The notes under the pieces are model-generated. The model had not been told where the DNA came from. It saw nothing but the letters and a program-made list of their open reading frames with translations, and did no database searches. From contig OZ244916.1 in assembly GCA_965221835.1 (NCBI GenBank), forward strand, positions 329,947-393,946: 64,000 bases of DNA, given 5' to 3'. This DNA comes from Gammaproteobacteria bacterium. Lineage in GTDB: Bacteria; Pseudomonadota; Gammaproteobacteria; Tethybacterales; Persebacteraceae. Positions 1,030 to 48,639 of this stretch are shown piece after piece (the stretch's first letter is position 1; every line of letters starts with the position of its first letter). A program made the translations under genes and the position numbers.

Positions 1030-1420
1030 TTTTGTATAGTTATGCACGATTCGGCGGCGAAAAATGACGGCGGGGCGAGAATGGAATCGGGCGGCGGCGG
1101 AATTCCGCAAAAAAACCGCGAAATTCCGCGAAAAACCCCCCGTCATTCCCGCGAAAGCGGGAATCCATTATAGGCGATTAATTTTAGAATTCCCGCGCGT
1201 TTTTTCATAAAAAACAGCGTGAACTCGGGGATTTGTCGGCGAAAATGGATTCCCGCTTTCGCGGGAATGACAGCGGGGAAGGCGGGATTTTGTCGGCAAG
1301 AATCGGACGGCGGCGGACGGCGAAAATGACGGGCGGCGGGGGAGATTCCGATTTACATCGGAATGGTAAAAAATGACGGCGCGGCGGACGGGCGAGAATC
1401 GGGCGGCGGCGGGAAGGCGG
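1030..1420. repeat. NIME-type repeat array (RS units flanked by dRS3 ATTCCC-N8-GGGAAT inverted repeats)
   Basis: dRS3 instances attcccgcgaaagcgggaat (~1144) and attcccgctttcgcgggaat (~1249). The RS unit ...ataggcgattaattttagaattcccgcgcgttttttcat... recurs at 16570, 17160 and 48690. The palindromic cattccgatgtaaatcggaatg motif recurs as well. Confidence 0.6.
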
Positions 1421-1422
1421 GA

Positions 1423-2868
1423 TTAGAAACGATGTACGGCTTCCAGATGGAATCTGGCGTTGTTGCCGAATTCGGCGGTTTTTCGCCATTGAAATCCGGC
1501 GGAGGGGCGGATTGTCCAGCGGTTAATCCGCAAAACGCTTTCCAGATTTAGCGAGTTGTTTGTTTCGCTCTCGCCTTTGTCAAAACGGGATTGCAGATGA
1601 TAAACCGGCGATATTTCCCAAATGCCGCCCGTCAAGTTTGCGGACAGGGAAAGATTGTAATCGGCGGTTTCGCCCGCAACGAATTCCGAAAATGCCGCCG
1701 TCCACAACTCGCCTTTGTATTCGCCGCCCGATGAATAATGAAATTCGCCGAATTCGCCGTTTGCGTTTGTTTGTCCGCCGGTGTAGTACAAATGCCAATT
1801 GTCTTTGCGGAAATCCATCCGCCCGCCCGCATTTGCGAAATAGCCGATTTCGTCTACGGAATAGCCGATATCGGGCGTGAAATTAAATAGCGAAAAATCG
1901 CCGCCGGACAAAAGCATCGCCGCCGCCCCGACAACCGCAATTCCCGCCCCGATGGCAGCACCGCCGCCTGAACTGCCCGAACTGCCGCCGCCCGAACTGC
2001 CGCTGTCATCGCCCGCATTTGCGGAATTGGCGGAATTGGCGGAATTTTCGGAATTGACGGAATTGGCGGAATTGGCGGGGGTTGTCGCACAACTCGCAGT
2101 CGCCGGGTCGCAAGAATCCAACGCTTGCGCAACATCGTTTGTTTCTTGATAGTTTGCGTCAAGATGAAACTCGCCGGCATTCGGGTCGGCTTCGCCGACT
2201 CTGCCCGTGTTTTGTGCGAACGCCAAAACTCCGCTTGAATCACGATAAACGAAAACGGTTGCCAATGTATTCTTAAAACGCGAACTTAAGTCGGTGCGGG
2301 GACCGGAGATGAAAAAGCGGTCGCCCGCCTCCATCGTCCGCCGATTACCGGCGTAACCGAACATAAACAAACCCGTATTTGAATCAACCGCTTTCGTATA
2401 GGGCAACTCGCCGCCTATGGTCGTATCGTCGGGGTTGACTCTTCTTAAAATGGCGGCTGCCGCATGATAAGTATGCAAACCGGTTAAATGCGCCACACTT
2501 CCGGCAAAAGAAAAAGCGGAAACGCTCGCAACGATGGCGGTTAGCGGGTCGCTAAAAATGATTTGTCCGCCGGGTTGGGGGCGAGTAGTCGCAACTGTCA
2601 AAGTCGTGGTCTCTACAACTACCGATATGGTATCGGGTCTTCCGTCCCCGTCTATATCTACATTTACATATCTATTGCCTTGACGCAATGTCGTGCGGGT
2701 GGTGATTGTAATAATTCGGTCGCTAATGCCTGGTACATTGATGACAACCGTCGGTCTTTTCCAAACTTGTGCAACTTCCGATTCTTGTGCGGATGCGGAA
2801 GTCGCAAATCCCGCCGCCAAAACGGCAACGGCGAAAAGACGGAAAATAGCGGTTTTTATGATTTTCAT
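1423..2868 (-). CDS. Secreted surface/outer-membrane protein, paralog A: signal peptide, low-complexity (ANS)n and (GSS)n tracts, C-terminal ~160-aa domain ending ...EAVHRF
   Basis: ORF 1423..2928. The likely true start is MKIIKTAIFRLFAVAVLAAGFATSASA-QE (signal peptide). A hydrophobic Gly/Ala-rich segment (AIGAGIAVVGAAAMLL) precedes the C-terminal domain. That domain is shared with the 811-aa protein at 61539..63848 (GQTNxxGxFGxxHYxSG...ELWTAAFSE..AG.TADY.LSLSA.L.GGIW..SPVY...NRWTI.PSAGF.W........RF.). The aromatic C-terminal residue is typical of OM beta-barrel proteins. Confidence 0.6.
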   Translation of the reverse strand: MKIIKTAIFRLFAVAVLAAGFATSASAQESEVAQVWKRPTVVINVPGISDRIITITTRTTLRQGNRYVNVDIDGDGRPDTISVVVETTTLTVATTRPQPGGQIIFSDPLTAIVASVSAFSFAGSVAHLTGLHTYHAAAAILRRVNPDDTTIGGELPYTKAVDSNTGLFMFGYAGNRRTMEAGDRFFISGPRTDLSSRFKNTLATVFVYRDSSGVLAFAQNTGRVGEADPNAGEFHLDANYQETNDVAQALDSCDPATASCATTPANSANSVNSENSANSANSANAGDDSGSSGGGSSGSSGGGAAIGAGIAVVGAAAMLLSGGDFSLFNFTPDIGYSVDEIGYFANAGGRMDFRKDNWHLYYTGGQTNANGEFGEFHYSSGGEYKGELWTAAFSEFVAGETADYNLSLSANLTGGIWEISPVYHLQSRFDKGESETNNSLNLESVLRINRWTIRPSAGFQWRKTAEFGNNARFHLEAVHRF

Positions 2869-2937
2869 AATACTCTCCTGCGTGTGTGTCGTAAAACGGT
2901 ATTGTATCAGAAAACGCCGAAATGTCAACCCGGCGCA

Positions 2938-4275
2938 TCAGATGTCCAGCAAAAATTTTCGTTCCCAAGCGGTGACGACATGGCGGTAGTTTTCCAGTTC
3001 GGTGCGTTTGCATGCCACATACAAATCCACGAAACGATTGCCGAGGCGTTCGCGCAACATTTTGGAACCGCGCATTGCTTCCAGCGATTCTTCCAGCGTT
3101 AGGGGAATTCCGCGCGCCATTTCCCACGCCGCTACGGTAACCGGGGCGGTCGGTGCGATTTTGTTTTTGACGCCCATAAATCCGGCGAGTAAGGAACCCG
3201 CCACCGCCAAATACGGATTTGCATCCGAACCGCAAACGCGATTTTCCACACGCATCGCCGCCGGTGCACCGGTTTCCGGTACGCGCAATCCCACCGTGCG
3301 ATTGTTCGCGCCCCAATGATTGTTGGTATTTGGCCACGGTACATTAATGCGGCGAAACGAATTGACATTCGGTACCAGCATCGCCATAATTTCGGGCAAA
3401 TGCCGCTGCAATCCGCCCAAATAATGTTTGAACATCTGACTCATTCCGCCGTCCCGTCCGGCAAATAAGTTGTCGCCGCCGCCCCGTGCGACAACGCTTT
3501 GGTGAATATGCATTGAACTGCCGGGTTGTCCCTCCACCGGTTTCGCCATAAAAGTAGCGACCATTCCGTGTCGCACCGCCGCCTCGCGTACGCATCGTTT
3601 GAACATCATCACTTGGTCGGTCATCGCCAAGGCGTCGCCGTGCTTGAAATTGATTTCAAACTGCGCAACGCCTTCTTCGTGCGTCAATGTGTCGACCGCC
3701 AGCGATTGCGCTTCGGCAAAACGGTAAATGTCGTTAATGACCGGCTCAAATTCGTTTAAGGCATCTATGCTGAACGGTTGGCTGGAAAACTCCGGGCGAC
3801 CGGTGCGACCAACCGGCGGACGCAAGGGATTGTCGGGATTGTTGTCACGGCTGGCGAGATAAAACTCCAACTCCGGTGCGACAATCGGACGCCAGCCGTT
3901 GCGATGAAAAAAACGAATGACTCGCTTGAGAATACTGCGCGGTGCATAGCGAATAAGCGCGCCTTTTTCGCTGATTCCATCGCAAATAATCTGCCCCGTC
4001 GGTTCCGTCGCCCACGGCACCAAAAAACATCCTTCCAGCCCGGCACGCAACTCCATATCGCCGTCCGTATCATCCAAAAAATCTTCCTGTTCGCCCCAAT
4101 CGCCGGTGACGGTTTGCGCCAAGGCGGATTCGGGCATCCGCACCGAAGATTGAAGGAATTTTTCGCACGGGATAATCTTGCCGCGCGGCACTCCCGCCAA
4201 ATCGGGAATGAAAATTTCGACTTCGGTAATGGAATGATTCCGCAGCCAGTTTTTAACTTCGTTATCCAACGACAT
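2938..4275 (-). CDS. Glutamine synthetase family protein (GlnA type III / gamma-glutamyl-polyamine synthetase-like)
   Basis: 445-aa ORF with GS catalytic-domain hallmarks (GDWGEQ, ...SSMHIHQS..., NRxxxxR-type C-terminal motifs). The exact subfamily was not resolved. Confidence 0.65.
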   Translation of the reverse strand: MSLDNEVKNWLRNHSITEVEIFIPDLAGVPRGKIIPCEKFLQSSVRMPESALAQTVTGDWGEQEDFLDDTDGDMELRAGLEGCFLVPWATEPTGQIICDGISEKGALIRYAPRSILKRVIRFFHRNGWRPIVAPELEFYLASRDNNPDNPLRPPVGRTGRPEFSSQPFSIDALNEFEPVINDIYRFAEAQSLAVDTLTHEEGVAQFEINFKHGDALAMTDQVMMFKRCVREAAVRHGMVATFMAKPVEGQPGSSMHIHQSVVARGGGDNLFAGRDGGMSQMFKHYLGGLQRHLPEIMAMLVPNVNSFRRINVPWPNTNNHWGANNRTVGLRVPETGAPAAMRVENRVCGSDANPYLAVAGSLLAGFMGVKNKIAPTAPVTVAAWEMARGIPLTLEESLEAMRGSKMLRERLGNRFVDLYVACKRTELENYRHVVTAWERKFLLDI

Positions 4276-4321
4276 ATCGCCTCGTTCCCTATTTTAGCAA
4301 AAATATGGCAATATTAATAAA

Positions 4322-4675
4322 ATGTCATACAACGAAACAAAAATGGAAACCGAAATACCCGAAATACCCGCAACAGCGGAACCCGAAACGGCGGAAAACA
4401 CCGCGCAAACCGCCAAATATCGCCTAACCGGCGATGTGCAAAACATCGGATTTCGCCACTATCTCGCAAAAACGGCAGAAGATCTGCAAATACGCGGCTG
4501 GGCAAAAAACGAAAGCGACGGCAGTTTAATCGTTTTGCTGTGCGCCGAAGAATCCGCCATCGCGCAAATGCTCCCGCATCTTTTGCAAGGACCGGTCGGT
4601 GCCGCCGTGAACAATATGATAGAACTTTTGGTTGAAGAAGACGACATTCCGCCCGAAAACTTTGATATCCGCTAA
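4322..4675 (+). CDS. acyP: Acylphosphatase with an acidic ~30-aa N-terminal extension
   Basis: LTGDVQNIGFRHYLAKTAEDLQIRGWAKNESDGSLIVLL matches the acylphosphatase signatures (V.G.VQGV.FR ... G.V.N..DGSV). Confidence 0.6.
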   Translation: MSYNETKMETEIPEIPATAEPETAENTAQTAKYRLTGDVQNIGFRHYLAKTAEDLQIRGWAKNESDGSLIVLLCAEESAIAQMLPHLLQGPVGAAVNNMIELLVEEDDIPPENFDIR

Positions 4676-4703
4676 TGCGTTCGCGCCAATTTTGGCGTAA
4701 AAA

Positions 4704-5939
4704 CTATACCAATCCTTCAAACATTTGCACGCAAACTTTTTCGCCGGCGGCAACCGCCCCGCGCGATTCTTCCAAAACAATAAAACAATTTGCGCGCGTC
4801 ATGGACGACAAAATGCCGGACCCCTGGTCGCCGGTCGGCGACACTTCATAACCGCCGCCCGCCGCCGGACGCAAAACTCCGCGCTGATATTCTTCGCGCC
4901 CCGCCGATTTTTTGAACGCGCACAAAGCGACCGCTTCCAGCATCGGCGGCGGTGAATATGCTTTTCGCCCGGCGCGTTTCCACAATGCGGCTTGCACAAA
5001 TTGATAAAAACACACCATCACCGAAACCGGATTGCCGGGCAATCCGAAAAAATCCGCCTCGCCGAGTTTGCCGAACGCCAGCGGACGACCGGGACGCATT
5101 GCCACTTTCCAAAACACGACTTCGCCGCGTTCCGCCAGAACCGGACGAATAAAATCCGCCTCGCCGACAGACGCCCCGCCGCTGGCGATAACGACATCCG
5201 CGTTTTTTGTTGCCGCATCCATTGCCGCCGCCAACATTTCCGGCGAATCGCGCACCACGCCCAAATCCAAACCGTCCGCCCCCATCCGCGCCAACATCGC
5301 AAAAATCGCATGGCGATTGGAATCGTACACTTCCCCCGGTGCCAGCGAATCGCCGGGCGATTTCAATTCGTCACCGGTGGAAAAATAAGCGACTCGCACG
5401 CGCCGATAAACCGCGGTTTCTGTTATTCCTAACGAACCCAAAAGACCGATTTCCGCCGGGGCGCAAAATGTCCCCGCCGCCAATGCGATTTCGCCGCACC
5501 GCAAATCTTCTCCCGCCAATCGGATGTGCGTTCCTGTGCGGCGAACGGCGGGCGCGATTTCTGCGATTCCGTCTTTTTCGCCGCACGATTCTTCTTGCGG
5601 AACGACAATATCCGCACCTGCCGGTACGCGCGCACCGGTCATAATGCGGACGCATTCGCCGCTTGCAATCGCGCAATCAGAAGGCGCACCGGCAAAGGCG
5701 CGTCCCGCAATGCGCAACGAAACATTTTTGTCGGCGGACAAATCGGCAATGCGACAAGCATAACCGTCCATCGCCGAGTTGTCAAAACCCGGTACATTAA
5801 ACGGTGCGGCAATATCTTCCGCCAGAACGCGCCCCAAAACATCGCGCAACGGCGCGCGCGTTTTTGCCGCAACCGGCACAATGCGCGACAAAATTAATTC
5901 GCGCGCTTCCCGCACCGATTTCCATTTTTCGTTTGTCAT
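4704..5939 (-). CDS. moeA: Molybdopterin molybdotransferase MoeA
   Basis: ORF 4704..6023, with the probable start at MTNEKW. It carries MoeA motifs (...SGGASVGEADF..., GLPGNPVSVMV). Confidence 0.8.
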   Translation of the reverse strand: MTNEKWKSVREARELILSRIVPVAAKTRAPLRDVLGRVLAEDIAAPFNVPGFDNSAMDGYACRIADLSADKNVSLRIAGRAFAGAPSDCAIASGECVRIMTGARVPAGADIVVPQEESCGEKDGIAEIAPAVRRTGTHIRLAGEDLRCGEIALAAGTFCAPAEIGLLGSLGITETAVYRRVRVAYFSTGDELKSPGDSLAPGEVYDSNRHAIFAMLARMGADGLDLGVVRDSPEMLAAAMDAATKNADVVIASGGASVGEADFIRPVLAERGEVVFWKVAMRPGRPLAFGKLGEADFFGLPGNPVSVMVCFYQFVQAALWKRAGRKAYSPPPMLEAVALCAFKKSAGREEYQRGVLRPAAGGGYEVSPTGDQGSGILSSMTRANCFIVLEESRGAVAAGEKVCVQMFEGLV

Positions 5940-6034
5940 TTGTTTCCTCCGCCGTGCGGCGATAAGCGATAAATTTGAATTGTAAAATAAAAACGCGTTC
6001 TGCGAAAAAACCGCCTTTCGCAAAACCGATTATT

Positions 6035-6568
6035 TTATTTCGGAAAAGACGATTTTGCAGAATTTTCCGAATTTTTTTCGGCAACTTTTTCTGCCAGAAA
6101 TGTTTCCGCCGTTTTGCCGTCCGGGTGAATAAAACGAACGATAACTTTTGTGCGTCCGAGATAAATCCATGTTGCAATGTGTATTAAAACCGATGCCACA
6201 ACGAAAATAGTTTGCGGCAAATCAAAAAGCGGCAATTCGGTAATCGTTTCATTTTTGGAAATAAAAATTAAAAGAATTATTCCAATAACGAAAAAAATAA
6301 TATGAACTGCGGCAAAAAATCGCACGGCGCGGCGCGCCCGGTTTTTCATCCGATATAAATTGATTCCGCAAAGGCACATTATCATATACCAAAAAAATGT
6401 CGCCGCCCAAAATGCAGGATATTCCGCGCCATATTCGCGATAAGACGGCAATGCACTTTCCGCAATTTGCACAAGCGGATACAACGCATAATACGCCGCC
6501 ACAACGACCACGCCGGGCATCCGCCCGCCCGCGATTTTTCGCCATAAATCGGCGGCAACTTTTAGCAA
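6035..6568 (-). CDS. Hypothetical integral membrane protein
   Basis: 177-aa ORF with several hydrophobic helices. No recognisable family. Confidence 0.4.
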   Translation of the reverse strand: MLKVAADLWRKIAGGRMPGVVVVAAYYALYPLVQIAESALPSYREYGAEYPAFWAATFFWYMIMCLCGINLYRMKNRARRAVRFFAAVHIIFFVIGIILLIFISKNETITELPLFDLPQTIFVVASVLIHIATWIYLGRTKVIVRFIHPDGKTAETFLAEKVAEKNSENSAKSSFPK

Positions 6569-6705
6569 CTTTTCCGCATTCCGAATGCGCTCCGTGTTTG
6601 AAAATAAAATTTATTATAACCGACAAATCGCGCCGCAAAAAAATTGCAAAAAATCGTATTTTTTCGCATTTGTGATAAAATGCGCGGCATCGGAGGATTA
6701 TAAAA

Positions 6706-8376
6706 ATGAAAAAACGCAGCGACATTATTACCGCCGGAAACGCGCGCGCACCAAATCGCGCATTGTTGCGGGCGGTCGGATTTAACGACGACGATTTTGA
6801 CAAACCGATTATCGGAATCGCCAACGGACATTCCACAATTACGCCTTGCAATTCCGGTCTTGATGCGCTGGCACACGCCGCCGAAAAAGCCCTTCGCGAT
6901 GCGGGCACAATGCCGCAAATGTTCGGCACAATTACAATTTCAGACGCCATTTCAATGGGGACGCCGGGAATGAAATATTCGCTGATTTCGCGCGAAGTAA
7001 TCGCCGATGCGATAGACACCGTCGTCAACGGGCAATGTATGGACGGCGTTATTGTTGTCGGCGGTTGCGACAAAAACATGCCCGGCGGAATGATGGCACT
7101 CGCACGAGTCAATATCCCGGGAATTTTCGTTTATGGCGGCACCATAAAACCGGGGCATTACAAAGGCGAAGATTTAACAGTCGTCAGCGTTTTTGAAGCA
7201 GTCGGCAAACACGCCGCCGGAAAATTGTCGGCAGAAGATTTTTTGCAAATTGAAAAAAAGGCGTGTCCGGGTGCCGGTTCATGCGGCGGAATGTTTACCG
7301 CCAACACGATGTCTTCGGCGTTTGAAGCGATGGGAATGTCGCTGCCTTATTCGTCCACAATGGCGGCAACAGACGCCGAAATAATTGATAGTGCCGCCGA
7401 CTCGGCACGCGCATTAGCCACCGCCATAAAACTGCAAATTCGCCCGCGCGACATTATGACAAAAGCGGCGTTTTTGAACGCCATCGCGGTGATTATGGCA
7501 GTCGGCGGTTCCACCAACGCGGTTTTGCATTTAATGGCAATCGCCCGCGAAGCCGAAGTTAATTTGCATTTGGACGATTTTGAAACGGTGCGGCGACGCA
7601 CGCCCGTTTTGTGCGACTTAAAACCTTCCGGACGATTTGTAACAGTAGATTTGCATCGTGCCGGCGGCATTCCGCAGGTGATGAAAATTTTGCTCAATCT
7701 CGGACTTTTGGAAGGCGAATGCATCGGCATTACCGGCAAAACATTGCGCGAAACTCTGGCGGATGTGCCCGATTTGCCGCCGTCCGCTGCGGCGAAAGAA
7801 GTCATTCGCCCCCCCGACAATCCGCTGTACGCGGACGGTCATTTGTCGGTTTTGTATGGCAATCTCGCCGAAGAAGGCAGCGTTGCAAAAATTTCCGGCA
7901 TCGCAAACCGCGTACATAACGGTCCGGCACGCGTTTTCAACTCCGAAGAAGAAGCACTCGCCGCGATTTTGGACGACAAAATCAAACCCGGCGATGTGCT
8001 GATTATCCGCTACGAAGGCCCGAAAGGCGGACCGGGCATGCGCGAAATGCTGGCACCAACTTCGGCAATTATCGGCAAAGGACTCGGCGATTCGGTCGGA
8101 CTCGTCACAGACGGCAGATTTTCGGGCGGCACTTACGGACTCGTTGTGGGACATGTCACGCCCGAAGCGGCAATCGGCGGCAATATCGCGCTGGTACACG
8201 AAGGCGATTCCATCACCATAGATGCCGAAACACGCAAACTAACTCTGCATATCAGCGACACCGAATTGGCGCACCGCCGCAGCGAATGGCAACCGCCGCA
8301 ACAGAATTTATCCGGCGTTCAGGCGAAATACGCGAAACTTGTCGGCGGCGCAAGCGAAGGCGCAGTAACTTGGTAA
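6706..8376 (+). CDS. ilvD: Dihydroxy-acid dehydratase (IlvD/EDD family)
   Basis: 556 aa, N-terminal ...[10 protein letters not shown]..., CDKNMPG motif, [12 protein letters not shown] ggagga sits 8 nt upstream of the ATG. Confidence 0.85.
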
Positions 8377-8385
8377 AATCGCGCG

Positions 8386-8739
8386 TCAATGCCGGTTCGC
8401 TTTGCGCGTCAATTCGGACATCGCAATGCAATCCACAATCAGCCAGCAAACGGATGCAAGACACAGCGCGCCGCCGCCCGCAAACCAGATTTCGCTTTTC
8501 AGATTGATAATTCCCGTTTGCGGCAACACCGACAAATCGCCGCCCGCCGCCGACAACATCGTCAAAAACGGCGTCAGCAAATGCACATAACCAACCGCCA
8601 AACATACGACACCGACAAAAAACAGCGCCGTCATCCACATACCCGAAACAAAAAATCCCAGATAAAAACGGTGCAACCCGACGACGCCGAAAACCAGCCC
8701 CGCCAACGCAAAACAATACGCCTTAAATAAATTTTTCAT
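8386..8739 (-). CDS. TM2-domain small membrane protein
   Basis: 117 aa with the GLHRFYLG motif and two hydrophobic helices. Confidence 0.45.
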   Translation of the reverse strand: MKNLFKAYCFALAGLVFGVVGLHRFYLGFFVSGMWMTALFFVGVVCLAVGYVHLLTPFLTMLSAAGGDLSVLPQTGIINLKSEIWFAGGGALCLASVCWLIVDCIAMSELTRKANRH

Positions 8740-8806
8740 ATAACGAATTAAACTTTATCACATCCGCCCCGTTTCGGGCGCGGTGTATTATAATTGTCGC
8801 AAGAAT

Positions 8807-9946
8807 ATGCCGGACACACCGCCGACTCCCGCCATTCTCGCTTTTGCGGACGGTATCGTATTTTCCGGCACCGCCGCCGGTCATCCGGGTATCGCCGTCG
8901 GCGAGGCGGTTTTTAATACCGCCATTTGCGGCTATCAAGAAATCGTCAGCGACCCTTCCTACTATCGCCAAATCGTCAATTTTACGCATCCGCACATCGG
9001 CAATACGGGCGCAACTTCGCTTGACGATGAATGCGCGGATTTCGCCGCCGCCGGTATTGTCGCACGGCGAATCGCCTCCTATCCGCATTGGCGCGCGCAA
9101 TGCACTTTGGACGATTATCTGCGGGCGCGACAAATTCCCGCCATCGCCGGAATAGACACGCGCGCAGTTACTTGCAAATTGCGAGACGGCGGCGCAATTG
9201 CCGCTTGCATCGCACCGGGCAATGACGAAAAAACGCGCCAAAATGCCATCGCCGCCGCCGCCGCTTTCGGCGGATTAACCGGCGCAATGTTGGCAGCAGA
9301 ATCCGGACAATCGCGCGCAACACAATGGCGCGAAGGTTTATGGCGCGCGCGCGAAAATGATTATGCGGCGGGCGGCGGACGGCGCGTTGTCGCGGTTTTA
9401 GATTGCGGAGTCAAAAGCGCGATTTTGCGCCAACTCGCCGCACGCGGTTGCGATGTGCGAGTATTGCAATACGACACCGATTTTGCAACAATACAAAAAT
9501 GCAAACCGGACGGCGTAATATTTTCCAACGGACCGGGCGACCCGGAACCGTGCGCCGCCGCAATTGCATTGGCGCGCGAATTAATGCACCAAAAAACGCC
9601 GCTGTTGGGAATTTGTCTTGGGCATCAAATTATCGCCGCCGCATTAGGGGCGAAAATTGTCAAAATGAAATTCGGACACCACGGCGCAAATCATCCGGTG
9701 CGAGACGAAGAAACCGGACGCGTTTTAATCACCAGCCAAAATCACGGTTTTGCGGCAGATGCGGCGAGTTTACCGGCGGACACGCGCATCACGCACACTT
9801 CTTTGTTTGACGGTTCGCTACAAGGAATCGCATGCGATTCGCCGCCGATTATGACTTTTCAGGGACATCCCGAAGCCAGCCCCGGCCCGCACGATGCCGC
9901 GATTTTATTTGACCGTTTTATCAATTTAATGGATGAAAGAAAATAA
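8807..9946 (+). CDS. carA: Carbamoyl-phosphate synthase small (glutaminase) subunit
   Basis: GATase motif ICLGHQ and CarA N-terminal homology. Start taken as the second ATG (8807), downstream of a tattataat -10 element. Confidence 0.9.
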   Translation: MPDTPPTPAILAFADGIVFSGTAAGHPGIAVGEAVFNTAICGYQEIVSDPSYYRQIVNFTHPHIGNTGATSLDDECADFAAAGIVARRIASYPHWRAQCTLDDYLRARQIPAIAGIDTRAVTCKLRDGGAIAACIAPGNDEKTRQNAIAAAAAFGGLTGAMLAAESGQSRATQWREGLWRARENDYAAGGGRRVVAVLDCGVKSAILRQLAARGCDVRVLQYDTDFATIQKCKPDGVIFSNGPGDPEPCAAAIALARELMHQKTPLLGICLGHQIIAAALGAKIVKMKFGHHGANHPVRDEETGRVLITSQNHGFAADAASLPADTRITHTSLFDGSLQGIACDSPPIMTFQGHPEASPGPHDAAILFDRFINLMDERK

Positions 9947-9948
9947 TC

Positions 9949-10254
9949 ATGCCATTTGTAATTGATAACCAAGATCTTTTTTTAGAACATCTCGCGAATC
10001 AAGGAGTTGGCGATAACGACACGGTTCACGGCGCAACACCGAGATCGTATGTCGCCTATCTTAAGTCGGCGGCAAAAATTCTCAACTGCGACATATCCGC
10101 GGATTTGTTTCCAAATTTAAATCGGAATGAATTAGAGGCGGTTTACGACCGTATAAAACGCAATCAACAGCACGCGCAATACGCCGCAGGAACGCGAAGG
10201 AATGCCGTTTCCGCAATGCGACATTATTTTGAGTTTTGCGGGGGAATTCTCTAA
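9949..10254 (+). CDS. Small hypothetical ORF wedged between carA and carB, low GC
   Basis: 101-aa ORF. It starts 2 nt after the carA stop and its TAA overlaps the carB ATG (TAATG). GC is visibly lower than the flanks. No recognisable domain. Confidence 0.35.
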
Positions 10255-13200
10255 TGCCAAAACGAAACGACATAAACAGCGTTCTCGTTCTCGGTGCGGG
10301 ACCGATTATTATCGGGCAGGCGTGTGAGTTTGATTATTCGGGAACGCAAGCGTGTCGTGCGTTGCGCGAGGAGGGAATTCGCGTTGTTTTGTTAAATTCC
10401 AATCCGGCGACAATTATGACCGACCCCGAAGTTGCCGATGCAACTTATATTGAACCGGTGGATGCGGATACGGCGGCGGCGATTATTGCGGAAGAAAAAG
10501 TAGACGCGGTTTTGCCGACAATGGGCGGACAAACCGCATTGAATTGCGCGATGGAACTTTTTCGGCGCGGCGTTTTATTTCCGCAAAATCCGCATGGCGC
10601 AAAACTCATCGGCGCAGGCGCAAACAGCATTCGTGCCGCCGAAGACCGCGGCGAATTCAAACGCGCGATGGAAGAAATCGGGCTGCAATGCGCGCCTTCG
10701 GCACTCGTTTCCGACATTGCGGATGCCGAACGGCGGGCGGGCGAAATCGGTTTTCCGATTATCTTGCGCCCTTCATTTACACTCGGCGGCGGCGGCGGCG
10801 GAGTCGCCTACAATCGCGAAGAATTTCTCGCGCTGGTCGCTCGCGCCCTCGCCGAATCGCCCTCCGGCGAAGTATTGCTGGAACGCTCCTTGCTGGGCTG
10901 GAAAGAGTTTGAAATGGAAGTCGTGCGCGATTCCGCCGACAATTGCATCATCATCTGTTCCATTGAAAATGTCGACCCGATGGGCGTGCATACCGGCGAT
11001 TCGGTCACCGTCGCCCCGGCGCAAACCCTGACCGACAAAGAATATCAGCGAATGCGCGATGCCTCATGCGCAGTATTGCGAAAAATCGGCGTAGATACCG
11101 GCGGCGCAAATGTGCAATTCGCCGTCAATCCCGAAGACGGCGAAATGGCGGTAATAGAAATGAATCCGCGCGTTTCGCGTTCTTCGGCACTCGCCTCAAA
11201 AGCAACCGGTTTTCCGATTGCAAAAGTCGCCGCAAAACTCGCCATCGGCTATACCTTGCCCGAAATCGCCAACGACATTACCGGCGGCACACCCGCATCG
11301 TTTGAACCGTCCATAGATTATATTGTCGTCAAAATACCGCGATTTGATTTTGCCAAATTCGCGCCCGCCGCCGATACGCTCACAACACAAATGCGTTCGG
11401 TCGGCGAAGTCATGGCAATCGGCGGCACTTTCGCCGAGGCGTTGCAAAAAGCATTGCGCGGGCTGGAAATCGGCGCGAACGGATTTGAAACGATATTGCA
11501 TTATGCACAATTAAACGAAGACGAAATACGCGAACGACTTTCAACCCCCCATTCCATGCGGCTGTTCGCCGTTGCCGATGCGATGGCGGGAAGCGAAATC
11601 GCAAAACGCGAACCGTTCAAAATGGAAGAAATTTACAAACTCACGCGCATCAATCCGCGCTTTTTGGACGAAATGCGCGAAATCGTTTTAATGGCGGCAC
11701 AAATCGCGCAAACCCGCCTCGCCGATACCGCCGCGAACGAAATGCACGAATGGAAACGACTCGGTTTTTCGGATGCGCAAATCGCCCGTTTGTCCGACAC
11801 CGGCGACTCGCCGCACACAGCCGAAACCGCGCGAAAAAAACGGCGCGCGTTAAACATTCATCCTGTATATCGCCGCATAGACACTTGCGCGGGCGAGTTT
11901 GCAACCGAAACCGCGTATTTATATTCCACTTATTTTTACGACCGCGCGCATCCCGCATGCGAGTTGCGCCCGCAATCCGGCGACAATAAAATTCTCATTC
12001 TCGGCGGCGGTCCAAACCGAATCGGGCAAGGCGTGGAGTTTGATTATTGTTGCATTCACGGCGTCACCGCATTGCGACAATCCGGTTTTGAAACATTAAT
12101 GATCAATTGCAATCCGGAAACGGTGTCCACCGATTATGACATTGCCGACCGGCTGTTTTTTGAACCGCTTACCGCCGAAGATGTGCTGGAAGTTTGTCGC
12201 CGCGAAATGCCGCGCGGCGTTGTCGTACAATTCGGCGGACAAACGCCGCTTTCCATCGCACGCGAACTGGAAAAAGAAGGCGCGCCGATTATCGGCACTT
12301 CCGTAGACGCAATAGATTGCGCCGAATCGCGCCGCCGCTTTCAACAATTAATTAAAAAATGCGGATTGCGACAACCCGAAAACGCGATTGTCAATTTTTC
12401 CGGCGATATTCAATCCGACAATTCCGCCGTCCCGCAAAAAACCGAAGAAGCGGCGCAAGCGGCGGCAAATATCGGCTATCCGTTGGTCGCCCGTCCGAGT
12501 TATGTACTCGGCGGCAAAGCGATGCGAATCGTACACAACGAAGACGAGTTGCGCGCCTATTTTTCCGCGCCGTGGTTGCAAGATTTTGACGGCGATATTT
12601 TGTTAGACAAATTTCTCGTCGGCGCAGTAGAAGTAGATGCGGACGCAATTCGCGATTCGGCGGGCGCATGCGTCATCGCCGGCGTGATGGAACACATAGA
12701 ACACGCCGGCATACATTCCGGCGATTCGGCGTGTTGTCTACCGCCGCATTCTCTGCCGGCGGCAATTGTCGACGAAATTAAAAGACAAACAACCGCGCTC
12801 GCAAACGCGCTCGGTGCAGTCGGAATGATGAACGTACAATTCGCCGTCAGCCAAAACGAAGTGTATGTTTTGGAAGCAAATCCGCGCGCCTCGCGCACCG
12901 CACCTTTCGTTTCCAAAGCGACCGGAATGCCGGTTGCCAAAATCGCGGCGCGGGCAATGGCGGGAATGTCGTTGCGCGCACAAAACATTCGCGAAATACC
13001 GCCGCCCGCCCGTTTTGCGGTAAAAGAAGCGGTTTTTCCGTTTGACAAATTTTCGGATGCCGATGTACTCCTCGGTCCAGAAATGAAATCTACCGGTGAG
13101 ACAATGGGAATCGCCGAAAACTTTCCGCGCGCGTTTTTGCAAGCACAAGAAGCCATTCAGCCGATGCCGCGCACCGGCACGGCGTTTATCAGCGTCCCCG

Positions 13201-13577
13201 ACGACGACAAACCCGGCGCATTAGAAGCGGCGCGACAATTCCAAAAACTCGGTTTCAATATCATCGCAACAGCAGGCAGCGCGCGCTATTTTTGCGAACA
13301 CGGTGTTGCCGCCGCAGTCGTGAACAAAGTCAAAGAAGGGCGCCCGCACATCGTGGACGAAATTGTCAGCGGGCGAGTGCATATCGTCATCAATACCGAA
13401 ACCAAATCGCCGCAAAGCCGCGCCGATTCTTTTTCCATCCGCCGCGCCGCGTTAATGCGCAAAGTGATATACTATACGACAGTCAGTGCCGCACAAGCGG
13501 CGGCAGCAGCATTAGGCGCAAAACGAGGAAAACCGAAATCTCTGCAAAACTGGCTAAAAAACGATACAAAAAACTAA
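10254..13577 (+). CDS. carB: Carbamoyl-phosphate synthase large subunit
   Basis: Starts [33 protein letters not shown]. Duplicated ATP-grasp halves and an MGS-like C-terminal domain. Confidence 0.95.
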
Positions 13578-13578
13578 A

Positions 13579-14064
13579 ATGGCAACACCGATTACCAAAG
13601 AAGGAAAAACGCGGCTGGAAACCGAACTCCAGAAACTGCGCACCGTAGAACGCCCCGCCATTGTCGCCGCTATCGCCGAAGCGAGGGCGCACGGCGATTT
13701 GTCCGAAAACGCCGAATATCATTCCGCCAAAGAAAAACAAGGAATGATTGAAGCGCGAATCAAAGAACTGGAAGCAGTTTTAGGTTCCGCCGAAGTCATT
13801 GACCCCGCCTCCGAAGGCGGCGGCGGACGATGCATTTTCGGCGCATTTGTCGCGCTTGAAGACGAAGACGGCAACATGTTCCGCTACCGGATTGTCGGCG
13901 AATACGAAGCCGACATTAACGCCGGTTTGTTGTCATCCGCTTCACCGTTAGGACGCGCCCTTCTCGGCAAAATAAAAGGCGATAGCGTGGAAGTCCGCGC
14001 ACCCGGCGGCGTTCGCGAATATCTAATTGCCGCCGTCGCCTATACCCAATTTGAATCCGAATGA
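13579..14064 (+). CDS. greA: Transcription elongation factor GreA
   Basis: MATPITKEGKTRLETELQKL...GDLSENAEYHSAKEKQ... is the classic GreA N-terminus. Confidence 0.9.
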   Translation: MATPITKEGKTRLETELQKLRTVERPAIVAAIAEARAHGDLSENAEYHSAKEKQGMIEARIKELEAVLGSAEVIDPASEGGGGRCIFGAFVALEDEDGNMFRYRIVGEYEADINAGLLSSASPLGRALLGKIKGDSVEVRAPGGVREYLIAAVAYTQFESE

Positions 14065-15482
14065 ATCCGCGCGCGTTCGATTCGCCGCGCTGGGATGTCC
14101 GCGCCGCCGCACTCAAAGCCGCCGATTATGCGGCGTTTGATGCCGTCTTGCAAATCGGCGGCAGCAACACACCTTTCGCAAAAGAAATCGCCGCCGCCGC
14201 CAAAAAACGCGGCGATTCTTCGTCCCCGACAATATGCACTTTGCGCGGCGGCACCGCCGTCATTAAAATCAGTTGGCGCAAAGCCGATTCCGTTTTTTCG
14301 CATCTGGAATCATTACGCCGTCATTTCGCCCCGCTGGCAAAAGCGCGAAAAATCGCAGTAGACATTCGCGATTCGGCGGCGACCGAATCTGCAGTTTTTG
14401 CCATTCTCGCCGGGGCAGCGGTCTTTGCCGGCGGTCCCGATTCCACACGCAAACCCCCGCGTCTGACTTTCGCCGGTTGCAATCGCAAAATCGCCAAAAT
14501 AGCAGCAGAATCGGCAACGGCAAATATTCTCGCACGCACATTGCAACGAATGCCGCCCAACGAATTGACCGTCCCCGAATTTGCGCGAATCGCCCGCACT
14601 CTCGCAAAACAAAATCCGCGCATGTCCTCCACAATTTGGAACGCAACCGAATTGCAAAAAATGAATGCCGGTTTAATCTGCGCAGTCGGACGGGCAGCAG
14701 AAAATCCGCCATGCATCGTCCGCATTCGCTATTCGGGAAATCCAAAATCGCGGCGAATTGTCTTTGTCGGCAAAGGCGTTTGTTATGATACCGGCGGCGT
14801 CAACATCAAACCCGCCCGTCACATGCGGGGAATGAAAAAAGATATGTCGGGGGCGGCGTCCGCATTGGCGGCAGTTTTGGCGGCGGCGGCGTTACAATTG
14901 CCGGTCAATGCGGACGCCTATCTCGCCCTCGCCGAAAATGCCGCCGGTCCGCAGTCATATCGCCCGGACGATGTCGTCACATCAATGTCCGGCAAAACCG
15001 TAGAAGTCGTCCACAGCGATGCCGAAGGACGAATGATTTTGGCAGATGCTATGACACTCGCCGCCCGCAAAACACCGGATGCCGATTTTTTCGTCTCATT
15101 CGCAACACTCACCGGCACAATGCACATCGCCCTCGGCGAAAGAATCAGCGGCGTTTTCGCCTCCGCCCCCTATCTGCTAAAAAAAGCACAAATCGCCGCC
15201 GCCGCAAGCGGAGAAAGATTATGCGCATTCCCGCTGGCAAACGATTATGCAACCGCCCTAAAAAGCGATGTCGCCGACATAAAACAATGTGCCGAAGAAG
15301 GTGCGGCAGACCACATTATGGCGGCACTTTTTTTGCGTGATTTTCTGCCGCCCGATTCGCCGTGGCTGCATTTAGATTTGTCAGCGGCAAGTTGCAAAGG
15401 CGGATTAGGCGTCGCCCCCGGACCAGAAACAGGTTTCGGTGCGGTCTGGGCGTTGGAGTTATTAAAACGGGCAAAACCATGA
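14061..15482 (+). CDS. pepA: M17 family leucyl/cytosol aminopeptidase
   Basis: Active-site NTDAEGR-like motif (VHSDAEGRMILADA) and a GKGVCYDTGG region. The ATGA overlaps the greA stop. Confidence 0.8.
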   Translation: MNPRAFDSPRWDVRAAALKAADYAAFDAVLQIGGSNTPFAKEIAAAAKKRGDSSSPTICTLRGGTAVIKISWRKADSVFSHLESLRRHFAPLAKARKIAVDIRDSAATESAVFAILAGAAVFAGGPDSTRKPPRLTFAGCNRKIAKIAAESATANILARTLQRMPPNELTVPEFARIARTLAKQNPRMSSTIWNATELQKMNAGLICAVGRAAENPPCIVRIRYSGNPKSRRIVFVGKGVCYDTGGVNIKPARHMRGMKKDMSGAASALAAVLAAAALQLPVNADAYLALAENAAGPQSYRPDDVVTSMSGKTVEVVHSDAEGRMILADAMTLAARKTPDADFFVSFATLTGTMHIALGERISGVFASAPYLLKKAQIAAAASGERLCAFPLANDYATALKSDVADIKQCAEEGAADHIMAALFLRDFLPPDSPWLHLDLSAASCKGGLGVAPGPETGFGAVWALELLKRAKP

Positions 15483-16219
15483 ACCAAACTCTGCCGCCGA
15501 TATGCGGCGACGGTTTTTTGGCAACACTATCCCGCCCCCGAGTCGCCGCAAGTTTTTGGCACCCGCCGCAACCACAAAAATTCGCACAAATGTGCCGGGA
15601 CGGTCTGCAAATCGCCGAAATACGCTTGGATCTCGCACAATCGCAAACCGAAGAATCGGCACGCACTCTATTATCCGCCGTTTCCGCCCTGCCGTCAATT
15701 CTCACAATCCGCCCGCCCTTTGAAGGCGGCAAATTCGCCGCAGACGAAAATAAACGCCGCAATTTGTTTTACCGCCTTTTGCCTTTCGCCTCCGCCGCAG
15801 ACATTGAGTTATCAGCAGAAATCCGCCCCGATATTGTCGCCGCCGCAAAAAAATCCGGTGCCGCAACAATCATATCGCAACACAACTTTAACGGCGTAGA
15901 ATCGCCGGCAGCCATAAACACAGCAGCAAATCAGGCATTCGCCGAAGGTGCAGATGTCTTCAAATATGCAGCAACCATAAAAAACCAAAACGAATTCGCC
16001 GCCCTAAAATCATTCTTGCAACAATGGACGCAAAAACCCGAAAATCCGCCCGTCATCGTCATCGGAATGGGCACCGCCGAAATCGCCCAAAAAACCCGCC
16101 GTGATTTTCCCGCCCTCGGTTCACGCATCACTTTCGCCGCCGCAAACGGAATTCCGACCGCCCCGGGACAACTAACAATCAAAGACGCCGCCGCCGCCGC
16201 CGCCCGATATTCACCATAA
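15479..16219 (+). CDS. aroD: 3-dehydroquinate dehydratase, type I
   Basis: IISQHNF (vs ISYHNF) and GADVFKYA (vs GADIVKIA) type-I DHQase motifs. The ATGA overlaps the pepA stop. Confidence 0.65.
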   Translation: MNQTLPPICGDGFLATLSRPRVAASFWHPPQPQKFAQMCRDGLQIAEIRLDLAQSQTEESARTLLSAVSALPSILTIRPPFEGGKFAADENKRRNLFYRLLPFASAADIELSAEIRPDIVAAAKKSGAATIISQHNFNGVESPAAINTAANQAFAEGADVFKYAATIKNQNEFAALKSFLQQWTQKPENPPVIVIGMGTAEIAQKTRRDFPALGSRITFAAANGIPTAPGQLTIKDAAAAAARYSP

Positions 16220-16224
16220 AACCC

Positions 16225-17400
16225 CGCCGCCCCGCCGATTCCCGCCTTTCCGCCGCCCGTCATTTTTCGCCTCCCCGACTCGCCCCTGACATTTGTCGGG
16301 GGCGAAACAAGTTCGGCGGAGTTTACTCCGCCCCCCGCAATTTCCGCCTTTCCGCCGCCGTCCGATTCCCGCCTTCCGCCGCCCGTCATTTTCAATTTTT
16401 ACCATTCCGATGTAAATCGGAATCTCCCCCGCCGCCCGATTCCCGCCTTTCCGCCGCCGCCCGATTCTCGCCGACAAAATCCCGCCTCCCCGCCGTCATT
16501 CCCGCGAAAGCGGGAATCCATTTTCACCGACAAATCCCCGCGTTCACGCCGTTTTTTAAGAAAAAAACGCGCGGGAATTCTAAAATTAATCGCCTATAAT
16601 GGATTCCCGCTTTCGCGGGAATGACGGGGGGGGGGGGGGCGCGGAATTTCGCGGTTTTTTTGCGGAATTCCGCCGCCCCCTCATTCCATTCCCGCGAACG
16701 CGGGAATCTGTCTGCGTCGCAAAGCGGCGGTAATTTGCATCGCAAAGCGATGCGTACAGATTCCCGCGTTCGCGGGAATGGAAGGTTCTTTTTCCCGCCG
16801 CCCCTCCGCCGGATTTCAATGGCGAAAAACCGCCGAATTCGGCAACAACGCCAGATTCCATCTGGAAGCCGTACATCGTTTCTAATCATTAATTCCCCGC
16901 CCCCGACATTTGTCGGGGCGAAATCCGCCGCAGCAGTTCACTGCCGCAAACCCCGGCATTTCCCGCCTTCCCGCCGCCCGTCATTTTTTACCATTCCGAT
17001 GTAAATCGGAATATCCCCCGCCGCCCGTCATTCTCGCCGTCCGCCGCCGTCCGATTCTTGCCGACAAAATCCCGCCCTCCCGCCGTCATTTTCGCGAAAG
17101 CGGGAATCCATTTTCGCCGACAAATTCCCGCGTTCACGCTGTTTTTTATGAAAAAACGCGCGGGAATTCTAAAATTAATCGCCTATAATGGATTCCCGCG
17201 TTCGCGGGAATGACGGGGGGTTTTTCGCGGAATTTCGCGTTTTTTTGCGGAATTCCGCCGCGTTCGCCGGAATGGAAAACTTTATTTTTCGGTCGTTTTA
17301 CGGAAAAATGGAAAACTTTATTTTCGGCGGAATTCCTCCGCATTCCGATGAAAATCGGAATCTCCGAATCGCAAACTAAATCCCGATTGCGATTCCTTCA
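16225..17400. repeat. Large NIME array (multiple RS units and dRS3 repeats); contains a G14 tract and an orphan gene fragment
   Basis: dRS3 copies at ~16499, 16604, 16688, 16760 and 17192. The palindromes ccccgacatttgtcgggggcg and cattccgatgtaaatcggaatc recur. Units are shared with 1030-1420, 48640-48830 and 61340-61535. Confidence 0.65.
16794..16877 (+). pseudogene. Orphan 3'-terminal fragment of the paralog-A surface protein (encodes ...RPSAGFQWRKTAEFGNNARFHLEAVHRF*), inverted relative to the full gene
   Basis: About 100 bp (16782-16880) are the exact reverse complement of 1420-1518, the last codons plus stop of the CDS at 1423..2868. Identity ends a few nt past the stop and ~20 nt into the coding sequence. 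It is embedded in the NIME array. Confidence 0.6.
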
Positions 17401-17513
17401 CGGCGGGTGCAATTCATCGTCGACAAAACGCACAATATGCAGACCGCTGACAAGCGGGCGGATGTTGATTTTTTGGAAAATCGGCGAAAAAAATCTTCCG
17501 CCCGAAAAAAAAA

Positions 17514-18608
17514 TTATACGCGGAATTGGGTGGCAAATTGGTGCAATGGAATTGATAATGCTGCGGTTGTGATTCCGCCGATGATGCGGAACGGGGGGGC
17601 GCGTAAATGTCCGCCCGCCGCCAAAATGCTTGTTGCCGCGAACATTGTGCAATGCGCGCGGGTGCGGCGGCGGCGGTATTCGGAAAACGCGCGCGGCGGC
17701 GGATTCGTCCGCAACAACGCCGCCAGACATTCGGCGTCTGCGATTCCCAAACTCAATCCTTGCGCGCCCGCCGGATGCAAAATAGTCGCGCCCGCGCCCA
17801 ACATCGCAACGCGCCCCGCGGCAAGCGGCGAAACGCGGCGCGCTTTCGGGGCGTAAATAAATCGTTCGCCTGCTGTGTGCAGGGCGAATTCGCCGCCGAA
17901 ACAATCGTTAATTTTTGTCAACAATTCGCCGTCCGGCAATGCCGACAATGCGCCCGCCGCGCGTTCGCCCGCGCATACAATCACGCCGGTTTTGCCGTCC
18001 GTGCGCGGTACCAGCGCGACAATGCCTATGGCGGTGAAACTTTCCACTGCCAGACCGCGCGGAAAACTTTTTGTTTCGGCGGCGAAAGTGATAATCGCCT
18101 GCCGGTAATCGGTTTCGCGCGCGACAAACGGCGGCGGCAAATCGGGCGCGGCGCAAGCGACAACGACGGCGGCGGCTTCGGCGATTTCTTCCGTCCCGTC
18201 CGCCGCGCGATACAAAACGCGCACCGAATCGGGTTGCGGCGTAAAAGACGAAACCGATACCGGCGCGCGAAATGAATCGCCCAATGCGGCGGCGAGTTCG
18301 CGGCGGGCTTCGCGATGGGCGATGCCGATTCCCAAAACGCCGCCGCAAAATGTCGCGCCGCCGGGGGCATTTTGGAAGGATATGCGCGCCGTTGATAGCG
18401 GGGCGGCGTTTGGCAAATTTGCGCCCGCTTGTCGCAAAACGGCGGCGGCGGCGGCGTTGATGACAACCGATTTTCCGTCTTCGGCGGCGGAATCAATGTC
18501 GTCTTTTTCCAAAACCAATACTTCGCCGCCGCGGGATTTGTGCAGGGCGGCAAAAACGAGTCCGCTAATGCCGCCGCCGATAACGCAAATCAGTCGCCGC
18601 GCATCCAT
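17514..18608 (-). CDS. FAD-dependent monooxygenase, UbiH/UbiF/VisC family
   Basis: VIGGGISGL dinucleotide-binding motif and GATILHPAGAQGLSLGIADAECL (vs GDAAH.IHPLAGQGLNLG.RD). Sits downstream of pepP as in E. coli pepP-ubiH. Confidence 0.6.
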   Translation of the reverse strand: MDARRLICVIGGGISGLVFAALHKSRGGEVLVLEKDDIDSAAEDGKSVVINAAAAAVLRQAGANLPNAAPLSTARISFQNAPGGATFCGGVLGIGIAHREARRELAAALGDSFRAPVSVSSFTPQPDSVRVLYRAADGTEEIAEAAAVVVACAAPDLPPPFVARETDYRQAIITFAAETKSFPRGLAVESFTAIGIVALVPRTDGKTGVIVCAGERAAGALSALPDGELLTKINDCFGGEFALHTAGERFIYAPKARRVSPLAAGRVAMLGAGATILHPAGAQGLSLGIADAECLAALLRTNPPPRAFSEYRRRRTRAHCTMFAATSILAAGGHLRAPPFRIIGGITTAALSIPLHQFATQFRV

Positions 18609-19909: not shown

Positions 19910-20352
19910 GGCAGTCCGTGAAAACGCCAGCCGTTTATGTTGCCGCGTTTGCCGGTTTTGTCGGGATCGCCTTCAAAACCTTCCAAAATGTTGTAGGCTT
20001 TTTTCCATCCGGCTTCGGCGGCGGCGGCGGCGGCATGATGCGAACGGACGCCGCTGCGACACAAAAACAAAACGGGGCGGTCGTGCGGTACTTCGCGTTC
20101 CAGTTGTTCGCAAAAGTTTTCGTTGTTGATCATTTCCGGGTAAATCTGCCATTCTAAATGCAAGGCGTTCGGCGCGCGTCCTACATATAAAAATTCGGGC
20201 GCGGTGCGCACATCCACCAATACGGCGGACGAATCGCCGCGCAAAACGGCGGCGGCTTCGGGCGGCGTCAATGCGCCGGAATAAATCAGATTCATTTCCC
20301 GCCGCCGTTCTTCGGCGGATTTTAGGGCTTGCTGCGGTGACGGATTTTGCAT
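19894..20352 (-). CDS. Rhodanese-domain sulfurtransferase
   Basis: Rhodanese active-site loop CRSGVRS. 152 aa. Confidence 0.7.
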   Translation of the reverse strand: MQNPSPQQALKSAEERRREMNLIYSGALTPPEAAAVLRGDSSAVLVDVRTAPEFLYVGRAPNALHLEWQIYPEMINNENFCEQLEREVPHDRPVLFLCRSGVRSHHAAAAAAEAGWKKAYNILEGFEGDPDKTGKRGNINGWRFHGLPWTQS

Positions 20353-20378
20353 AATATTCGCTGGTTTATAAAATAAAT

Positions 20379-20451
20379 TAGGCCGTCAGGGACTCGAACC
20401 CTGGACCAACGGATTAAAAGTCCGCTGCTCTACCAACTGAGCTAACGACCC
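20379..20451 (-). tRNA. tRNA-Lys (anticodon UUU)
   Basis: The reverse complement gggtcgttagctcagttggtagagcagcggacTTTtaatccgttggtccagggttcgagtccctgacggccta folds as a cloverleaf with D-loop, anticodon loop cuUUUaa and T-loop GGTTCGAGTCC. The acceptor stem has two G-U pairs and CCA is not encoded. Confidence 0.8.
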
Positions 20452-20522
20452 GCCGAAATTATACTACCGAAATCGCCTTTTTTTTCGATTCGCGATTTCT
20501 TAATTTTTTGCCAAAAAAAATT

Positions 20523-48538: not shown

Positions 48539-48639
48539 TATATTCCGAAAATTTTTTTCGGCGGTTTTGCTTTTTTAAGATATTCCGAAAATTTTTTTTT
48601 CGGCGATTTTGTTTTTTTAAGATATTCCGAAATCCCCGC

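Follow-up and report, generated by a model that had tools for sequence, protein, structure and literature searches.

A probable gene-end relic in a dRS3-type repeat array at the border of a 15.3-kb segment found in both orientations in an uncultured gammaproteobacterium

In Neisseria, arrays of dRS3 and RS repeats, the neisserial intergenic mosaic elements (NIME), serve as recombination substrates next to surface-protein genes and have been described as specific to that genus (Bentley et al. 2007, PMC1797815). A second type of repeat, the NTS hairpin, is the target of SsnA-type GIY-YIG nucleases acting on single-stranded DNA and has been detected both in Neisseria and in distant bacteria including Rhizorhabdus and Wolbachia (PMC11893778). 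Inversions associated with repeats, insertion sequences and prophages are described for N. gonorrhoeae and N. meningitidis (PMC3454330, PMC9778887). The locus considered in this paper shares features with all three. It lies in a 64,000-nucleotide stretch of contig OZ244916.1 (assembly GCA_965221835.1), referred to throughout as the window, and consists of a 90-nt fragment of a gene end, here called the orphan, which sits in a dRS3-type array 15.3 kb from the intact gene that it matches (gene A). The orphan is probably the relic of a gene end in a recombinogenic hairpin-repeat array, the repeats of which would recombine, invert the 15.3-kb segment between the two copies and delete or move pieces of the array, while gene A remains intact.

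The coordinates of the features are collected in Table 1. Self-comparison of the window showed that the orphan and the 3' end of gene A are 100% complementary over their 90 nt; an exact inverted repeat of this length cannot be due to chance. This bears out an earlier sequence-only reading, in which about 28 codons and the stop of the gene at 1423..2868 had been recognised as a reverse-complement copy. The interval proposed there (16782-16880 against 1420-1518) did contain a real repeat, but it started about 16 nt and ended 7 nt too early, and the spacing of 14 kb has to be replaced by 15.3 kb. An abrupt end of identity had been claimed for both sides. On the 5' side the boundary is indeed sharp, with a dRS3-type palindrome at 16760-16779, then 18 nt, then the fragment. 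On the 3' side identity with the flank of gene A resumes beyond a 73-nt hairpin block (16888-16959), which within the window is found beside the orphan copy only and not beside the gene A copy. Positions 16978-17081 match 1276-1379 at 97% and positions 17079-17246 match 1110-1277 at 96%, about 300 nt in total. Since identity picks up again past the hairpin block, the true feature is an inverted repeat of about 450 bp that brackets 15.3 kb.

The orphan is not the remnant of a larger gene at its present site. When gene A and its paralog, paralog B, were compared with the whole window by tblastn, no further coding sequence resembling either of them was found beyond the two genes and the orphan. 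The match of the orphan is confined to residues 451-481 of gene A, and coding continuation upstream of it is absent; the frameshifted third paralog that the sequence-only reading had allowed for is thus negative by this search. A 35-aa open reading frame that begins with an ATG at 16778 and is in frame with the fragment was considered as an expressed gene and rejected, as a 1-nt indel breaks the frame in three other strains (L008, L012 and L016 in our numbering of the loci compared).

Table 1. Positions of the repeats, genes and segment in the window (strand as read in the window)
Feature	Position	Strand	Description
Orphan fragment	16798..16887	+	Last 28 codons of gene A (RPSAGFQWRKTAEFGNNARFHLEAVHRF), stop at 16883-16885, 2 nt
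3' end of intact gene A	1421..1510	-	Partner of the orphan at 16798-16887
Segment found in both orientations, 15.3 kb	1511..16797	.	Body of gene A, glnA-like, acylphosphatase, moeA, ilvD, carA, carB, greA, pepA, aroD
Hairpin block	16888..16959	+	Directly 3' of the orphan; fold energy -27.4 kcal/mol, z-score -2.5
Repeat unit preceding the orphan	16677..16797	+	dRS3, 52-nt spacer, dRS3, 18 nt; its end is the illegitimate join to the gene fragment
Module M1	1094..1381	-	Arm on the side of gene A; opposite in direction to M2 and M3; separates gene A from the giant gene 1 start (minus strand, about 990)
Module M2	16392..16676	+	aroD side; direct repeat of M3
Module M3	16960..17261	+	RS, degenerate NTS, RS, NTS, tail; orphan-side arm of the long inverted repeat
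NTS match	17188-17215		In M3
Gene A, 481 aa	1423..2868	-	Signal peptide, variable N-terminal part, Gly/Ser/Asn-rich linker, predicted C-terminal helix and 10-strand beta-barrel domain, final Phe
Paralog B, 811 aa	61539..63974	-	C-terminal 190 aa 50% identical to gene A; 3' end with 72% DNA identity to the orphan

To the right of the segment are ubiH-like, pepP and rhodanese genes. To its left is a giant repeat-protein gene (giant1) that starts near position 990 on the minus strand and extends past the window edge. Related contigs were found by exact-protein look-ups with GreA, the rhodanese, the acylphosphatase, gene A and members of the GreA cluster, and were mapped by blastn; all are metagenome contigs, 97-99% identical to the window. 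Exact look-ups with the window's own UbiH and AroD matched no record, and two scans of JGI metagenomes, one with the orphan junction and one with a 24-mer of the gene end, gave 0 matches.

The segment occurs in both orientations. The order of the window, giant1(-), gene A(-) ... aroD(+), ubiH(-), is shared by 13 contigs. Both junctions are present on one contig in four cases, namely ctg52288 at 0.38 Mb (L020 and L001), ctg52286 (L011 and L101), ctg51956 (L012 and L102) and ctg51932 (L003 and L105); nine more contigs cover this order in part. The inverted order, giant1(-), aroD(-) ... gene A(+), ubiH(-), is found on five contigs from two samples. Three of these span both junctions (ctg52280, with L002/L106 and L111; ctg52281, with L019/L107 and L109; ctg52288 at 1.88 Mb, with L108 and L005), and ctg140201 and ctg51723 carry a single junction each. 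An assembly artefact is unlikely, because the inverted contigs have their own single-nucleotide polymorphisms and three of them contain both junctions. The contig names point to what is presumably a long-read assembler. One contig, ctg52288_630x_l, is linear and 3.2 Mb long and carries the whole segment twice, with 1.5 Mb between the oppositely arranged copies (L001/L020/L118 at 0.36-0.40 Mb, L108/L005 at 1.87-1.90 Mb).

In at least four strains, full-length gene A sits exactly where the window has the orphan. For example, in L002, the gene A protein of which is identical to that of the window, gene A runs into the 90 nt and from there into sequence corresponding to window positions 16798-25424 at 98.5%, so that the switch point lies inside the 90 nt. 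The sequence-only reading had offered a silent cassette or a recombination footprint as explanations. The footprint half stands, as the orphan marks the site of the full gene A 3' end in inverted strains and, as described below, a crossover can be seen there; the cassette half does not.

Opposite orientations are found among strains that differ by 1-2%, and many strains at this distance coexist at high coverage in metagenome assemblies of the ENA (ERZ25072152, ERZ25070530, ERZ25072479, ERZ25072490). Trees of three regions are star-like, with the inverted strains scattered rather than clustered, and appear to indicate a population that recombines heavily, with frequent exchange between strains. 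The left-hand giant gene has two alleles of its 5' end among the strains, only 85% identical to each other. A link between the inverted state and the divergent 5' allele was considered and rejected, as that allele occurs in both orientations, including two window-type strains.

Both orientations have been observed in a single sample (ERZ25072152) at comparable coverage, as might be expected of a programmed switch in which the repeats flip the segment reversibly within a clone and alter either what lies 3' of gene A or the transcription that enters giant gene 1. Gene A, as oriented in the window, also reads toward giant gene 1, and the intervening hairpin has been deleted in the window. Such a switch is nonetheless very improbable. 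The contigs with opposite orientations also differ by 1-2% elsewhere and hence represent different strains, no invertase is encoded nearby, and the segment carries housekeeping operons, while promoter switches are usually short. In either state, moreover, each of the two flanking genes is complete and has a promoter of its own. A search for recombinase or GIY-YIG open reading frames beside the repeats yielded none, and no recombinase gene was seen in the segment or its flanks, which is absence of evidence only. We infer recombination of the general (RecA-type) kind, not site-specific.

The history of the orphan can be followed in the repeats around it. The array contains a module of about 290 nt, with the order RS, hairpin, RS, hairpin, tail, in three nearly identical copies (M1, M2 and M3). 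The 5' junction of the orphan, where dRS3 and GGAAGGTTCTTTTTCCCG meet CCGCCCC..., is the same in the window and eight other contigs, and the uninterrupted version of the repeat unit at this junction exists in L105. The shared junction and the intact unit indicate that the orphan arose once, by one illegitimate event. Its presence is polymorphic. In four window-type strains it is absent and M2 is fused to M3, with about position 16628 joined to 16960 (the deletion allele is seen in L006 and L005). It is likewise absent, with the same M2-M3 fusion, at all four giant1-aroD junctions of the inverted type. Other pieces of the array have been displaced. The interval between giant1 and gene A, at the opposite end of the segment, contains in ctg51932 and ctg132874 the repeat unit that usually precedes the orphan, intact and without the gene fragment; in ctg51956 it contains the downstream flank of aroD. 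To account for these arrangements, the modules must have recombined several times.

The use of the 90 nt in recombination is best seen by comparison of L016, which has the orphan, with L019, which has the full gene A at that site. Downstream the two are identical over the 200 nt read, from the remainder of the 90 nt through the stem of the hairpin and into the 3' end of a gene with a NOV_C domain. Upstream of the 90 nt they are unrelated, with repeats and aroD in L016 and the whole of gene A in L019. No M module intervenes between the fragment and the NOV_C gene, and the shared homology amounts to only about 125 nt (the 90 nt and about 35 nt of hairpin). Since this is the only homology available between the two strains at that point, the 90 nt and the hairpin stretch demonstrably served as a homologous crossover substrate. 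The route may have been an inversion and then a deletion, an M1-M2 inversion and then a deletion between direct copies, or exchange with DNA of another strain; all three require the crossover to have taken place in this short stretch.

These observations fit a sequence of events that is in part conjectural. An illegitimate join inside a repeat unit of an NTS/dRS3-like array would have created, once, the relic of the 3' end of a gene of the gene A type. The relic lies between aroD and ubiH, the place at which full-length gene A ends in strains of the opposite orientation. The relic, the hairpin block and the 290-nt M3 form the inverted repeat of about 450 bp with the gene A 3' end and its flank (M1). 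Homologous recombination among the 90 nt, the hairpin, M1, M2 and M3 would flip the segment and delete or move pieces of the array, and recombination between M2 and M3 would remove the orphan block in some strains. Gene A stays intact either way, because the crossover falls either inside its last 28 codons or 3' of them. Nothing would be encoded by the relic itself, and it would supply no sequence variation. In the order of events that is favoured, the window-type arrangement with the relic is ancestral, and the inverted and relic-free strains were derived from it by inversion plus repeat-mediated deletion. This arrangement is favoured as the source because homologous events alone suffice to produce each of the other configurations from it.

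Several points weigh against this account. The reciprocal product expected of a simple crossover between orphan and gene A, an orphan at the giant1/aroD junction, is present in no inverted strain, so that either deletion between repeats followed as a further step or the inverted form is the ancestral one. An outgroup contig (L113, CarB 80% identical) has neither arrangement but phosphotransferase system genes after aroD, and so does not set the polarity. With recombination this heavy, independent inversions cannot be counted. In four strains the orphan has another stop (TTT TGA) and an unrelated 3' flank, so that the history of the 3' side must be more complex than a single copy event. The comparison rests on metagenome contigs throughout, and the 3.2-Mb ctg52288 is probably a chimera of two strains, because both arrangements are present on it and another contig of the organism is circular at 2.0 Mb.

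In an alternative account, the ancestral state is the inverted one, in which gene A adjoins ubiH, and the orphan is the footprint of imported DNA. A window-type strain would have taken up DNA of the inverted type, which integrated by homology in the flank on the ubiH side and by an illegitimate join in gene A, 90 nt before its stop, and '90 nt + hairpin + M3' would thereby have been placed beside the M2 of the recipient. The downstream sequence of the orphan (hairpin, M3, ubiH) is indeed collinear with the sequence downstream of gene A in inverted L002, L014 and L108, and the insert is flanked by the direct duplicates M2 and M3. Its sharp 5' boundary, inside a repeat unit and with at most patchy microhomology, the entire absence of the orphan from inverted strains, and the frequent exchange between strains read from star-like, incongruent trees are also as such an import would predict. 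It requires, however, that the orphan-free window-type orientation existed beforehand, and it presupposes DNA uptake (competence and transformation) in the organism. The orphans of the TGA type with their unrelated 3' flank call for extra events, and, as noted, the orphan-bearing arrangement yields every other configuration by homologous events alone. Import is therefore a possible but rather doubtful explanation, and a relic already in place before the inversion remains the preferred one.

A third explanation takes the orphan to be a silent donor cassette like those of pilS, a reservoir that rewrites the 3' end of gene A or its paralogs by gene conversion and so varies the protein. There is a superficial likeness to meningococcal pilS loci, and to the alternative 3' cassettes of mafB and fhaB, in that a promoterless partial gene copy lies inside a repeat array, here of the dRS3 type (PMC1797815). 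Within each genome checked, moreover, gene and orphan are identical over 84-90 nt, except for one base in ctg52286, which is compatible with conversion. The differences are more substantial. In contrast to pilE/pilS and to mafB and fhaB, a single partial copy was found by tblastn in 64 kb, and it is 100% identical to the expressed gene A over its 90 nt and hence has nothing to donate. It would correspond, in the structural model, to the final Phe of the gene A membrane anchor and the one and a half strands before it, the conserved barrel and not the variable exposed part. Among ten gene A alleles there were 2 variable sites in the last 270 nt, compared with 38 in the linker (nt 721-900). The strain-to-strain mosaicism for which the sequence-only reading had proposed to look at the 3' end is thus absent from what is the least variable part of the gene. 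Finally, 8 of 17 strains lack the orphan, and no effect of this on their gene A is visible. A donor cassette is hardly credible on this evidence, and a relic used as a crossover site is again the better description.

With respect to known inversions in bacteria, the locus shares a segment bounded by inverted homology, both orientations among strains, and breakpoints inside the repeats. Compared with the inversions of N. gonorrhoeae and N. meningitidis, it differs in that one arm of the repeat holds the last 28 codons of a gene, so that the gene is intact either way and the other junction keeps a 'spare' 3' end. A further difference is that the evidence comes from uncultured strains that occur together in metagenomes. 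A gene relic and a repeat-mediated inversion are, as such, phenomena of a known kind.

The repeats themselves are also of a type already known. The dRS3 pattern ATTCCCN8GGGAAT (ATTCCCNNNNNNNNGGGAAT, a 20-bp inverted repeat) is present in eight exact copies in the window, with 0.01 expected, and the palindrome is found at the same junctions in all related loci; successive copies are spaced 52, 65 and 84-85 nt apart. A 31-mer that spans the palindrome is common to one window repeat and a dRS3 copy of N. gonorrhoeae. The 28-nt NTS motif CGTCATTCCCGCGMAVGCGGGAATCYRG has five matches with one mismatch and one with two, and none in 100 shuffles; the matches include the oriented CGTC...C flanks and lie at 1141-1272, 16494-16626, 17188-17215 and 48744-48771. 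A weaker fourth copy of module M is located near 48628-48788. Searches of the repeat region against phage records gave no match, and those against a plasmid collection gave, apart from chance matches, only short stretches of dRS3 in two N. gonorrhoeae chromosomes that had been mislabelled.

The likeness to NIME lies in 20-bp ATTCCCN8GGGAAT palindromes between repeat units of 50-105 bp, set in arrays beside genes for surface or giant proteins, with the number and order of units varying among strains. The differences are that the host is not Neisseria, that no similarity to Neisseria sequence was found for the RS parts, and that the outcome is inversion and deletion of a housekeeping segment instead of replacement of the alleles of an adjacent gene. 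The likeness to the NTS/Ssn system is the 28-nt motif with its oriented flanks in a non-Neisseria genome, an occurrence consistent with the distribution already reported (PMC11893778). As a difference, a GIY-YIG (ssnA-like) Pfam match was absent among the nine repeat-adjacent open reading frames scanned, and a link between Ssn cutting and the orphan junction could not be shown.

The hairpin block that follows the orphan is also present 3' of gene A in L001, L101 and every inverted strain, and a diverged version is found 3' of paralog B. It is deleted 3' of gene A (1381-1422) in the window, ctg51956, ctg51932 and ctg132874; without the block, there is nothing hairpin-like between gene A and the co-oriented giant gene. 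The tail of M2 (16626-16639) is a run of 14 G where M1 and M3 carry G6T5, and is a possible intergenic slippage tract.

The organism is an uncultured, deep-branching gammaproteobacterium with 52% GC. To judge from a circular related contig of 1,999,211 bp, its genome is probably about 2 Mb in size. The sequence-only reading had placed the DNA in Neisseria, and the evidence of CarB, IlvD and uptake sequences is against this; the NIME frame amounts to a resemblance. IlvD is at most 71% identical to that of any GTDB species representative, so that these representatives include no close genome. CarB is 72-81% identical to proteins of metagenome-assembled genomes (MAGs) and about 59% to those of the nearest named genera, Guyparkeria and Competibacter. 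The DNA-uptake sequence of the Neisseriaceae, GCCGTCTGAA, occurs once in 64 kb, and none of the DNA-uptake dialects is enriched in the window.

Gene A belongs to a family of narrow distribution. It has 56 homologs, all of them unnamed; their sources are a small number of ENA metagenome assemblies and NCBI MAGs that bear the label Gammaproteobacteria, and no relatives were found among 185,579 GTDB species representatives. Neither gene A nor paralog B was assigned to a family in Pfam or NCBIfam, and a PDB sequence search with the gene A family profile gave no meaningful match. Members of the family are conserved in their C-terminal 165-190 aa and unrelated in their N-terminal parts. An AlphaFold2 model of gene A has a helix at 307-321 and ten strands between 328 and 479, with pLDDT of about 70-80; Foldseek matched it to porins and other outer-membrane barrels with E of about 3e-4 and low TM scores. 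Gene A is a candidate autotransporter-like outer-membrane protein. Gene A is frameshifted in L103 (ctg132874, 3557-5542), where it is called as pieces of 285 aa and 203 aa, and aroD is cut to 99 aa in L110 (ctg47770, 11012-11311). These may be real pseudogenes or errors in contigs of low coverage (8x and 12x).

Other parts of the window are variable as well. Between the array and ubiH there is a slot (17262-17513) that is empty in the window, ctg51956 and ctg49595 and that elsewhere, among the loci compared (L003-L020, L110 and L114-L118), is occupied by a gene with an HNH_2 domain (188-342 aa), a gene with a NOV_C domain (299 aa) or an unannotated gene of 332-344 aa. It looks like a small variable island of the defence type. 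The window has two giant paralogous genes in opposite orientation, one at 37577-48538 on the plus strand and the other running on the minus strand from about 990 to beyond position 1. The complete one (37577-48538) encodes 3,653 aa, with nine tandem repeats of 657/717 nt at 40.6-46.3 kb, and the upstream regions of the two are 75-83% similar (424-1013 against 37554-38101). A small open reading frame between carA and carB (9949-10254) overlaps both genes; it codes for 96-101 aa across strains and has no family match.

It is quite unlikely that the NTS modules and the spare gene end form a maintained device, one that flips the 15-kb segment repeatedly, always rebuilds gene A and alters transcription into the giant surface-protein gene. 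If true, this would be a repeat-array variation system in the style of Neisseria in a distant lineage. On the preferred reading, what had been taken for an antigenic-variation cassette in Neisseria is instead a gene relic at an inversion junction in an organism that is not Neisseria. The locus is on that reading a natural example of how a short duplicated gene end lets a segment invert while the gene at the breakpoint is spared, of NTS/dRS3-type arrays acting as recombination hot spots outside Neisseria, and of coexisting strains of an uncultured bacterium that differ by such rearrangements.

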